This document shows positions 17,501-23,432 of a stretch of 64,000 bases of DNA, one piece after another. Numbering within the stretch: position 1 is the stretch's first letter; every line of letters starts with the position of its first letter. Under the pieces are notes generated by a model. The model was not told the origin of the DNA. It saw only the letters and a program-made list of their open reading frames with translations, and did no database searches. This stretch comes from Zootoca vivipara (taxonomy: Eukaryota): positions 86,986,001-87,050,000 of the forward strand of contig NC_083281.1 of the NCBI RefSeq assembly GCF_963506605.1, in the 5' to 3' direction. Made by a program: the position numbers and the translations under genes.

Positions 17501-19867
17501 GCTGCATTCTGTTAAGGTAAAGGGTAAAGGGACCCCTGACCATTAGGTCCAGTCGTGACCGACTCTGGGGTTGCGCGCTCATCTTGCATTATTGGCCGAG
17601 GGAGCCGGCGTATAGCTTCCAGGTCATGTGGCCAGCATGACAAAGCCACTTCTGGCGAACCAGAGCAGCACATGGAAACGCCGTTTACCTTCCCGCTGTA
17701 GCGGTTCCTATTTATCTACTTGCATTTTGACGTGCTTTCGAACTGCTAGGTTGGCAGGAGCTGGGACCAAGCAACGGGAGCTCACCCCGTCGCAGGGATT
17801 TGAACCGCCGACCTTCTGGTCAGCAAGCCCTAGGTCAGCACCCCCTCCCCCACAGGCCACACCCCCAATAGACCTGCTCTCAGCCTTTGGGTGATGGAAC
17901 ATGACCTTGAACTCTGACCATGCCTCTTCCTTGCCTGGATGGAGGACAGAGATTGTGTGTGTAAAAAATTAGTCCAGTGCACAAAGCTAAAATTTGCATC
18001 CATTGCTTTGTCCACTTCAACCTCTGGCCCCCAGAAGGCTGTACAGAAGGAAATGTGGCCCTTGGGTTGTTAAAGGCTTTTTCACCCCCTAGGCCCCAAT
18101 AATAAACAGTGCACTTGGGAGAACAGCATCTGAAACCAAGCCTTAGGAGGAAAGGTTGAGGGAGCTGGGAATGTTTAGCCTGGGAAAGAGGAGACTGACA
18201 CAGGATGCAATAGTCATCTTCAAATATCTAAAGGGCTGTCAAATGGAAGAGGGAACGTGCTTGTTTTCTCCTGCTCTGGAGGGTAGGACTCGAACCAGTG
18301 GCTTTCTTGTAGGGAGATTCCAACTAAACATCAGGAAAAACTTTCTGACAGTTAAGAGCTGTTCGACAGTGGAACAGTCTCCCCTGGAAGGTGGTGGACT
18401 CTCCTTCCTTGGAGGTTTTTAAGAAGAGGTTGGATGGCCATCTGCCATGGATGCTTTAGTTGAGATACCTGCATTGTAGGGGGGTTGGACTAGATGACCC
18501 TCGGGGTCACTTCCAGAATCTATAATTCTATGTTCAAACTTTCTTTCCCTTCTCAAGCTGCTTAGCAACTCCAACTGGCCTCCAGAAACCCGAGATTAGG
18601 TGGGAAGGCTTTCAGTATAATCAGGGATCTTTGCAAACTTCCAGGGGACTTTTGACCACTGGAATAAAGGCAAGGGTTTTAAAGGTGCCGACAGCCCTTT
18701 TGATTGATTTCTAGCCCTTTGACTTGTTGAATAACCAGATTACCGGGTATCAACCCTCTGAGGCAATAAATTTAAGAACAGAGAGAGACCAAACTTTGCA
18801 GAGATCATGTTGCTAATGGGCCTGGTTGGTGGTGGAATCGAATTAAGAATCAGGAGGGCGGGCTAGCAACTGGTCCATTTTTGAGCTTCAGTGGGCAAGG
18901 CTGCACCCAGAGATAGGGAATCCATGTTTCAAGTGGGGGACTTCTCTGGCCTTCCAGATGTTGATGGAACAACAGATGAAAATTAAGAAAATGAAAGGCC
19001 AAACTAGAAAATAAACACAAAGACTGAAGACAGTAGCACATGGGTTTAAAATGGGGGTGGGTGGAGTTGGATTAGTTTTGACTGCATGGAAAGGGTGGGG
19101 AGGCAGAAATGCACTCGTCACACGCTCAAATGCACCGTTGCTCTGTTGTTGTTGCTGCTTTGAAGGCTGGTCTAGGCAGGAGACACCCCCCCCTCAGCGT
19201 GTCATAGGAAGTTGTCTTAAACAGCCCAGTTACGCCTACACTGACCGGCAGCAGCTCTCCAGGGTTGCAGGCACGGTGCATTCCCAGCCCAACCCTGAGG
19301 TGCCCGTGGGAATTCAATTGGGGACCTTCTGCATGCAAGGCAGGTCCTCTCCCAGACTCCCACTCAACTCCTCCCTTCCAGCCAGGACTCCTATGGGCGC
19401 GCCTGCAATACGGAACTCGGTTCGAATCCTGATGAAGCTCCGCTGAGCTCGGGGGAGAGTTCGCGACTACGTGTAAATGCGTGCGAGGCACTCTGCATGC
19501 GCCCAGAGGAACCGTTGCCGACCAGCTGGGCTCGACAACGTCTAGAGCAGCCCGACCCACCTGCCGCCGCTGCTACGGGTTCAGCCGCCAGCCAGGCGCC
19601 CAGGATCCGCTCCGACTCGCCCCCCGCGTACATATGCGCGGTATCCACCTCGCAGTGCCCGCGGGCCAGGAACGCGCGCAGCATGGCCCCGCTGGCCGCC
19701 GCGTCTGCTCTCCGCCCGAACTCCATGGTGCCCAGCACCGAGCGCATCCCGCGGCTCTGCCCGCGTAGCCCCGACATCCCGGCGGCTGCAGCAGCTCGAT
19801 CTGCCTCCGGCTGGACTCGAACTCGCCACCAGCACCAGGTCCACGTCCTGGGCAAAGGCAATCGCAT
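11552..19867 (-). CDS. AKR7A2: Aflatoxin B1 aldehyde reductase / succinic semialdehyde reductase (aldo-keto reductase family 7A)
   Basis: Exons 19561-19867 (second in-frame ATG at 19777), 16582-16769, 15515-15619, 14200-14296, 12713-12815, 11799-11928 and 11552-11713, all GT/AG with an intact frame. Motifs: [14 protein letters not shown] (catalytic Asp/Tyr), VKVATKANP (Lys), LFYLHMPDH (His), [21 protein letters not shown] and C-terminal [15 protein letters not shown] on the - strand at 11322-11327. Confidence 0.95.
11973..12343 (+). mobile_element. Young CR1 LINE 3' end
   Basis: [26 protein letters not shown]...FKQRLD followed by an ATTCTAT-type tail. Confidence 0.92.
13192..14150 (-). mobile_element. 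5'-truncated non-LTR retrotransposon (RTE-X-like), interrupted by a Sauria SINE
   Basis: Decayed [36 protein letters not shown]...CPLYDKAR...VARFC with a C-terminal Cys motif, and a 3' end AATAAAGCTTTGATTTGATTTGA. The clade assignment is from memory. Confidence 0.65.
13236..13582 (+). mobile_element. Sauria SINE, full length
   Basis: tRNA-like head GGGACCCAGGTGGCGCTGTGG...GGTTCGAATCC, a CCTTTACC tail and a 15-bp TSD TATACCAG(C/G)TATTAA. Confidence 0.92.
14716..14966. mobile_element. Tc1/mariner (Tigger-like) MITE
   Basis: TIRs CAGTGGTACCTCGGTTT/AAACCGAGGTTCCACTG with TA target duplication. Confidence 0.85.
16795..17480 (+). mobile_element. RTE-clade LINE 3' fragment
   Basis: LLYACETW...[24 protein letters not shown]...GGRQKRFKD, the typical RTE reverse-transcriptase C-terminus. 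Confidence 0.85.
17515..17834 (-). mobile_element. Sauria SINE (5'-truncated)
   Basis: Near-identical reverse complement of the copy at 13236-13582. Confidence 0.9.
18130..18532 (+). mobile_element. CR1 LINE 3' fragment
   Basis: [16 protein letters not shown]...[12 protein letters not shown] plus the CR1 3' UTR. Confidence 0.85.
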
Positions 19868-20146
19868 CACCACTCTCTGCGCATGCGTCAGCGCCTCCTG
19901 GCCTCTCCTCCCCCGTTCTAGGAGAAGGGACCATCTCGGATTTCCTGATTCCAGAAGCAAAGGAAGAGCCTTGCCGGATAAATTCGGGTCCCTTATCCTG
20001 CCATGTCATTTTAACCTTCCTTTGTTTGTTTTATTTATTGCATTTCCATCCCTTCTTTTCCTCCAAGGAGCTCAATGTTTTCCCCTGCCGTTCCTCATTT
20101 AATCCTAGCAACAGCCCTGCCAGGTAGGCTTAGCTTGGCCGAGACT

Positions 20147-20415
20147 CATAGAATCATAGAGTTGGAAGAGACCACAAGGGCCATCCAGTCCAACCCCCTG
20201 CCAAGCAGGAAACCCCATCAAAGCATTATTGACATATGCCTGTCAAGCCTCTGCTTAAAGACCTCCAAAGAAGGAGACTCCACCACACTCCTTGGCAGCA
20301 AATTCCACTGCCGAACAGCTCTTACTGTCAGGAAGTTCTTCCTAATGTTTAGGTGGAATCTTCTTTCTTGAAGTTTGAATCCATTGCTCCGTGTCCGCTT
20401 CTCTGGAGCAGCAGA
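20147..20415 (-). mobile_element. Young CR1 LINE 3' end
   Basis: Near-identical reverse complement of 12077-12343, with an (ATTCTATG) tail. Confidence 0.92.
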
Positions 20416-22905: not shown

Positions 22906-23122
22906 CTGCCGCCGCAGCCTTGGGTTCAGCTGCCAACCAGGCGCCCAGGATCCGCTCCGACTCGCCCCCCGCGTAAATATGCGCGGTATCCACCTCGCAG
23001 TGCCCGCGGGCCAGGAACGCGCGCAGCATGGCCCCGCTGGCCGCCGCGTCTGCCTTCCGCCCGAACTCCATGGTGCCCAGCACCGAGCGCACCCCGCGGC
23101 TCTGCCCGCGTAGCCCCGACAT
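22906..23122 (-). CDS. Duplicated AKR7A exon 1 (exon 1b): candidate alternative first exon or truncated paralog
   Basis: Intact ATG, 72 codons plus a phase-1 G, donor GTGGGT. Translation [72 protein letters not shown]. It differs from 19561-19833 at 10 of 273 nt. Expression is unproven. Confidence 0.75.
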
Positions 23123-23432
23123 CCCGGCGGCTGCAGCAGCTCGATCTGCCTCCGGCTGGACTCGAACTCGCCACCAGCTGGCAAACCACTTTTTTTAAGT
23201 ACCCGTGGCGCCACGCCTTCCCTTCCCAGGTAAGGGGCCGTCTCAAATTTCCTGCAACGTCTTTTTAGAGCATGCCATTTTGTATGCCTGTTTAAAAAGT
23301 GCTGGTTTGAAGCAGTGCCTTCAGTCTGAGTGTCCTGCTAAGGTCTGGGAGACCTGGGTTCAAATCCCCACTGGGCTATGAACCCGCTTGGATGCGACCT
23401 TGTCCCTGTCTTTCTCAGCCTATAACCTACCT

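Follow-up and report, generated by a model that had tools for sequence, protein, structure and literature searches.

Variable-first-exon clusters have been described for protocadherin alpha and gamma, UGT1 and GCNT2 (PMC1885805). Among aldo-keto reductases (AKRs), the sole active-site difference between AKR1C1 and AKR1C2 is Leu54 or Val54, directly before the catalytic Tyr55 (PMC5349110, PMC12947632), and human AKR7A2 yields a mitochondrial protein from its first AUG and a cytosolic/nuclear one from its second, residues 1-29 being sufficient for import (PMC11974929, PMC13219423). The lizard Zootoca vivipara has one AKR7A gene, for an aflatoxin B1 aldehyde reductase, whose 5' end we examine here; it lies on the minus strand of a 64,000-nucleotide (nt) stretch of contig NC_083281.1 (86,986,001 to 87,050,000; the window, in whose own positions all coordinates are given). 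Two paralogous first exons, 1a and 1b, lie 3345 nt apart, with identical in-phase donors, upstream of one constant body. The best explanation, to which we assign a probability of about 0.6, is an exon-1 duplication followed by two-way gene conversion between the copies, with residue 49, next to the catalytic Tyr, kept apart. We found no published account of AKR7A first-exon duplication or conversion in lizards in the literature searched, whose coverage did not extend to subscription journals. The parts of the duplicated unit are as follows.

19561..19867, minus strand: coding part of exon 1a (proximal), 100% identical to residues 1-102 of XP_034975849.1 and covered by stranded RNA depth
19867 and 19777, minus strand: long and short ATG of exon 1a, whose GT donor is at 19560
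22906 to at least 23178, minus strand: exon 1b (distal), with the short ATG (23122) only and the donor CAG/GTGGGTCGG, the same as in 1a
18629..19560, minus strand: duplicated 5' part of intron 1, copy a
21860..22905, minus strand: duplicated 5' part of intron 1, copy b
23179..23254, minus strand: upstream homology of 1b, pairing with 19834-19947 and lacking the stretch with the long-isoform ATG
21845..21957, minus strand: cryptic exon preceded by a strong pyrimidine tract; RefSeq XP_060132243.1 joins 1b there, with a 110-amino-acid (aa) product

The whole unit spans 18629-19947 in one copy and 21860-23254 in the other, and each first exon sits in a CpG island (observed/expected ratio 0.94). 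Exon 1a has the potential for a 363-aa form, carrying a 30-aa Arg-rich extension (5 Arg, 2 acidic residues), and for a 333-aa form. A gap of ~38 nt upstream of 23178 in 1b spans the place of the long ATG of 1a, and an in-frame TAA lies near 23200; there is no in-frame ATG upstream, and 1b is therefore limited to the 333-aa form. By analogy with human AKR7A2 we infer that this short form would be cytosolic. No start-site pile that would mark separate promoters was found in the RNA data. A search with the 1b read-through frame for exon-plus-intron fragments of other lizards gave three matches, the Zootoca model and two bird-like fragments.

Divergence between the copies is distributed very unevenly along the unit. 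At aligned sites the mismatch rate is 0.28, 0.22 and 0.24 in three intron segments and 0.115 in the 78 aligned nt by the donor; in the exon it is 0.19 for the donor-end 31 nt and 0.017 for the 242-nt core, and upstream it is 0.26. Intron homology is collinear (18629-19560 versus 21860-22905; for the distal part the score is 135, and 200 shuffles gave no more than 36.5), and the upstream homology (19834-19947 versus 23179-23254) scores 38 against a maximum of 29 in 500 shuffles. Over the comparable exon as a whole (19561-19833 versus 22906-23178) 10/273 nt differ, divided between the following parts.

19592..19833, minus strand: homogenised core of 1a, 4/242 differences, none synonymous
22937..23178, minus strand: homogenised core of 1b, including 56 nt that are coding in 1a and untranslated in 1b
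19561..19591 (1a) and 22906..22936 (1b), minus strand: donor-end 31 nt, 6 differences

Differences in the core are confined to codons 11 (M/V), 23 (R/K) and 49 (M/I). None of the 39 fourfold sites in codons 1-62 differs, as against 82/361 sites in the intron (Fisher P=1e-4) and 45/228 in the CpG-rich proximal intron (P=7.5e-4). Nor is there any difference in the 56 nt leading up to the shared ATG (0/56); identity stops abruptly at 19833/23178, and the longest identical run, 86 nt, was equalled in 1/5000 permutations. The donor-end 31 nt depart from the core (Fisher P=2e-4) through synonymous changes in codons 63, 64 and 69 and a three-base V/K change in codon 68; they apparently lie near the intron level of divergence and outside recent tracts. 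These values reproduce those of an earlier note on this DNA, which had counted 10 differences in 273 nt, placed six of them, all three synonymous ones included, in the 31 nt beside the donor (codon 68 going unnamed), and reported three replacement codons but no synonymous change in the other 242 nt and full identity of the 56 nt upstream of the shared ATG. The third-codon-position GC content is 0.86 in both first exons against 0.73 and 0.77 in exons 2 and 7; this does not discriminate biased conversion from an ordinary CpG island. The intron block beside the donor (19483-19560 versus 22804-22905) is 88% identical, between the exon and intron levels, and would represent either an older tract or constraint; a GGCACTCTGCATGCGCTCAGAG-like motif of this block also occurs near 21021 and 21814.

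Both first exons are present in six annotation sets from five lacertid species, Zootoca included. Our table of 12 exons comprises Zootoca, Lacerta agilis, Podarcis lilfordi, P. raffonei and P. muralis, the last with two accession versions that were counted as two assemblies because their bodies differ; the P. muralis proteins P0041 and P0042 were left out, since up to residue 49 or further they have the same sequence as the version.1 exons. Contigs of another species (organism C) differ from the window at 34 letters in ~458 in the intron of 1a (18503-18991) and at 31 in ~341 in the spacer. The orthologous intron difference is 7-9%, a lower bound as only pieces at least 86% alike were included, versus 22-28% between the Zootoca copies. 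By these intron distances the age of the duplication is about 2.8-4.5 times that of the organism C split, which shows that the duplication is old and predates speciation and bears out the earlier claim of an old duplication reaching over 1 kb into intron 1. Two pieces (X12, depth 2) identical to the flanks of 1b were not counted, forming no bridge by the 31-letter rule.

Ten of the 72 residues vary among the 12 exons; copies within a species differ at 1-6 residues (mean 3.2, n=6), about as much as orthologues between genera (mean 2.9), although the duplication is the older event. At site 44, L. agilis, P. lilfordi and P. muralis.2 have V in 1a but L in 1b, Zootoca has V twice, and P. raffonei and P. 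muralis.1 have L twice; sites 44 and 49 are seen in all four combinations. Only P. muralis has T28, which occurs in 1b of both versions and in 1a of one. The two versions thus differ in 1a at sites 28 and 44, a hint of polymorphism shared between copies. Sites 23, 49 and 68 group Zootoca and L. agilis by copy and sites 28 and 44 by species, K23 being common to the 1b exons of the two and M11 private to Zootoca 1a (1/12 exons). Since sites 23 and 68 follow the copy, no recent tract has spanned the entire exon. The residues at sites 44 and 28 would fit short transfers running both ways, and we consider mosaic two-way conversion between 1a and 1b likely. A protein tree of the exon core (31 rows, 53 columns) joins the 1b exons of Zootoca and L. 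agilis (91/79); most of its branches lack resolution, and it places Lerista and Varanus among the lacertids. In snakes recombination is enriched at promoter-like features (PMC11703093), and by analogy a similar preference would be a plausible reason for breaks at the lacertid first exons.

The picture is therefore not quite that of the earlier note, which had proposed a conversion tract, predicted exons clustering within species, and seen a hint of selection for the surviving differences or of 1b as a sequence donor. Exchange remains the best explanation, because sites flip to the paralogue's state by lineage; it left mosaic patches rather than one tract, and transfer apparently ran both ways, 1b not being a donor only. 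Clustering within species holds for sites 28 and 44, while sites 23, 49 and 68 show the clustering by copy that the note had counted as contrary evidence. The three replacements of the core have different histories, and selection is plausible for residue 49 only. The codons concerned are these.

19631..19633, minus strand: codon 49 of 1a, ATG (Met), directly before the catalytic Tyr50
22976..22978, minus strand: codon 49 of 1b, ATT (Ile)

Codon 49 corresponds to residue 44 of rat AKR7A1 and lies 15 nt from site 44. In the six lacertid sets it encodes Met in 6/6 copies of 1a and Ile or Phe in 6/6 copies of 1b; in P. lilfordi 1b the non-Met residue went from Ile to Phe, with no return to Met. 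The same position is Met in human AKR7A2 and mouse AKR7A5 and Val in human AKR7A3 and rat AKR7A1, and the structures compared at the position before Tyr fall into the same two classes (PDB 2bp1 and 2c91 with Met, 2clp and 1gve with Val). Zhu et al. 2006 reportedly named Met44 a specificity determinant favouring succinic semialdehyde in AKR7A5; two citing papers mention only position 77. Other pairs of copies also tend to differ here (4/5: the sphaerodactylid exons, Sceloporus, Aquarana and human AKR7A2/AKR7A3), M/I in the Sceloporus whole-gene pair and M/K in the Aquarana pair, where it is one of 7 differences; the Pogona pair, of uncertain paralogy, shows no difference at residue 49. Against a baseline of 0.33 this gives P of about 0.045 without phylogenetic correction. 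Taken together, the comparisons suggest selection on residue 49.

Two AKR7A first exons are also found in the sphaerodactylid geckos Sphaerodactylus and Euleptes (proteins P0002, P0020, P0062 and P0063), with Met in the first and Val or Ile in the second, the opposite order to lacertids. Their exon pairs differ at 12/53 and 13/46 core residues versus 1-5/53 in lacertids, so the first exon can diverge. The second exons of both genera group together (92/83). A gecko duplication independent of the lacertid one would be the simpler reading. The single Paroedura model resembles the first Euleptes exon (95/87).

We propose the following history. An old tandem duplication of the promoter, exon 1 and ~1 kb of intron 1, which the sequence shows, provided one gene with two alternative first exons. 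Recurrent non-allelic gene conversion, in short tracts and in both directions, would then have passed sequence between the CpG-island exons, and purifying selection would have kept them similar enough for conversion to continue while the introns escaped, as the mosaic sites suggest. Residue 49, in the substrate pocket, has stayed different, in our preferred view through selection for two substrate preferences, a reason to which we give about even odds. In Zootoca 1a would be the main exon, and 1b would be minor, tissue-restricted or decaying. A more ambitious version, which is tentative and more doubtful than that, is that lacertids and independently sphaerodactylids rebuilt the AKR7A2/AKR7A3 split inside one gene through exon-1 duplication. 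The Met enzyme would be mitochondria-capable and the Ile/Val/Phe enzyme cytosol-only, with a different substrate range; in lacertids selection would hold the codon apart, with tracts ending at most 15 nt away on both sides.

Several observations weigh against the proposed history. As regards conversion, the cross-species case draws on ten variable protein sites, the DNA of both exons having been compared in Zootoca alone. Which L. agilis exon is 1a and which 1b was decided by resemblance to Zootoca, a partly circular step, K23 and V68 have persisted between these two species, and the L/V difference at site 44 is a one-base change that could recur. A model of constraint only, with the flank rate assumed, expects 7-91 core differences where 4 are seen, with P of 0.01-0.19 at its lenient end. 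As regards residue 49, the position is labile: it is Ile, Leu or Phe in 15/74 scorable one-gene species (75 examined), the single models of Rhineura and Elgaria, both with Ile, are among those without Met, and it ranks 17th of 47 columns. Three homogenisations at site 44 versus none at site 49 give a one-sided P of 0.125, which is not significant, and there is no divergence peak around codon 49 in Zootoca, where 39 and 77 identical nt lie on its sides. As regards the use of 1b, stranded RNA from organism A (two runs, with 6% of each analysed) gives depths of ~18 and 7 for 1a and ~16 and 4 for exon 2; 1b reaches 4% and 0% of exon-1 depth, possibly with reads from 1a, and the Zootoca RefSeq model splices it to the cryptic exon at 21957.

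The alternative that survives best, though we think it unlikely, accepts conversion and takes the surviving differences as neutral: 1b would be a weak or decaying promoter and exon, kept near-identical by nothing but passive copying from 1a, and residue 49 would merely not yet have been covered by a fixed tract. The RNA depth of at most 4%, the cryptic acceptor of the Zootoca 1b model and the commonness of the Met/Ile change in single genes all speak for it. In addition, 1a alone could yield both long and short proteins, as its RNA 5' end lies near the long ATG (roughly 19856-19873, by rough arithmetic on depth bins), which resembles the short leader described for human AKR7A2. However, passive decay sits poorly with an open frame, start context and donor that are kept in 6/6 sets, and with protein models of L. 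agilis, P. muralis and P. lilfordi that join 1b to exon 2. The donor-end 31 nt have diverged with three synonymous changes and no break in the frame, and neither the Ile to Phe change in P. lilfordi nor the difference at residue 49 in 4/5 other pairs is what neutrality would lead one to expect.

An improbable alternative dispenses with conversion and explains the similarity by strong purifying selection in a low-mutation CpG island, sites 28 and 44 being parallel changes or polymorphism. Both copies do lie in such islands and sites 23, 49 and 68 do group by copy; if orthologous exons diverge by perhaps 1-2%, only 7-26 differences would be expected. It is weakened by the 4 core differences observed, and 0/39 fourfold sites is too few even beside the CpG-rich proximal intron. 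Against it also stand the 56 identical nt that are untranslated in 1b, the same peptide varying among the 1a exons of different species, and the abrupt end of identity. Moreover, each of three separate changes at site 44 is to the paralogue's state, and the gecko copies diverged freely.

An assembly or polishing artefact in which one copy's reads overwrote the other, named in the earlier note as a way to refute conversion, is very improbable: it could produce the 86-nt and 78-nt identical runs and the T28 and L44 of both P. muralis.1 copies, and no long read across both copies was seen, but five species have both near-identical exons with the same copy-specific residue, the fused P. raffonei model has the same exon order and matching flanks, an organism C contig runs from 1b into its own unique upstream flank (22904-23400), and the core differences are interspersed and agree with the copy-specific states of other species.

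The body to which the first exons belong is single; tblastn found no second AKR7A body within the window.

11552..16769, minus strand: shared body, exons 2-7, single copy
16769-16582, 15619-15515 and 14296-14200, minus strand: exons 2, 3 and 4
12815-12713, 11928-11799 and 11713-11552, minus strand: exons 5, 6 and 7

Exon 1a and the body match Z. vivipara XP_034975849.1. By full-length homology the enzyme is an AKR7A aldo-keto reductase (E 3e-155 against human AKR7A2, the next family reaching only 2e-40), PF00248 is found in the protein, and the best matches of exon 1 are human AKR7A2, mouse AKR7A5, rat AKR7A1 and human AKR7A3. The catalytic tetrad Asp-Tyr-Lys-His is present and aligns with Asp40, Tyr45, Lys73 and His109 of AKR7A1 (Asp40/Tyr45 numbering as in PMC6651818); Asp and Tyr are encoded within both first-exon copies. 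At the places of AKR7A1 residues 77 and 110 the lacertid body (exon 2, 16769-16582) carries Leu and Met, like human AKR7A3; Trp occupies position 77 in all 17 of the other full-length reptile and bird proteins aligned, and Met is found at 110 in none of them (0/17). Since the strongest switch of specificity is said in the literature to be position 77, the lacertid enzyme may be shifted towards an AKR7A3-like pocket. By Pfam matches, the body is flanked by an RPL10-like gene on one side and by PQ-loop (SLC66A1) and CAPZB genes on the other. By synteny we take the RPL10-like neighbour to be MRTO4.

Upstream of the long ATG of 1a, a five-codon open reading frame starts at 19884, and its TGA overlaps that ATG; this frame and the RNA start near the long ATG could tune the ratio of long to short isoform. 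The sequence TGCGCATGCG at 19879-19888, in the stretch absent from 1b, is an NRF1-like core two mismatches from an NRF1-type consensus; no match to this consensus with at most one mismatch was found at either promoter. Directly ahead of the long start, mis-extended protein models of Rhineura, Sceloporus and Crocodylus have THAQ or AHAQ, and this would agree with a conserved motif at 19879-19888. The Zootoca 1a extension has a four-residue insertion (RTWTWCWWR versus RTWWR in Podarcis) at ~19847-19858, where the identical tract has its edge. Short palindromic repeat copies 95-99% alike (23428-23557, 24806-24898 and 28433-28618), located between 1b and the PQ-loop gene, are apparently a young miniature transposon.

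Two first exons explain some odd annotations, namely the 110-aa 'uncharacterized' Zootoca gene and the fused double-exon models of P. raffonei, Euleptes and Sphaerodactylus, and one lacertid gene may yield two enzyme versions. If the proposed history is true, the locus is a very small natural test of selection versus gene conversion, with one codon, two exons and many sequenced species; and a repeated route of exon-1 duplication, loss of the targeting start and change of the residue before Tyr would couple the compartment of the enzyme to its substrate pocket. By analogy, lacertid AKR7A may work like the protocadherin and UGT1 variable first exons, under a balance of conversion and selection. 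As in protocadherin, UGT1 and GCNT2, tandemly duplicated first exons lie before shared constant exons, to which in lacertid AKR7A both would be spliced; protocadherin variable exons are strongly homogenised by conversion, and UGT1 first exons carry substrate-pocket residues, although UGT1, the detoxifying example, shows little conversion (PMC1885805). Unlike those clusters, lacertid AKR7A has only two small exons with 1-6 residue differences, one of them without the targeting start. Primate LW/MW opsins and RHD/RHCE are likewise homogenised paralogues with a lasting difference at a functional residue; in the opsins introns are homogenised and divergence peaks at the selected sites, whereas in lacertid AKR7A homogenisation affects the exon, the introns have escaped it and codon 49 shows no such peak (PMC3924837). 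AKR1C1 and AKR1C2 are also near-identical paralogues whose active-site difference is the residue before the catalytic Tyr, but they are whole genes of another AKR family, and the positions are equivalent by their place beside Tyr, not by alignment. There is also a likeness to mammalian AKR7A2, AKR7A3 and rat AKR7A1, with long mitochondrial and short cytosolic forms (in the lizard predicted by analogy) and Met versus Val before Tyr. Mammals are described as reaching this by whole-gene duplication or by leaky scanning with a downstream promoter (PMC11974929, PMC13219423); in lacertids only exon 1 was duplicated, and pocket residues 77, 110 and 224 are therefore common to both isoforms.

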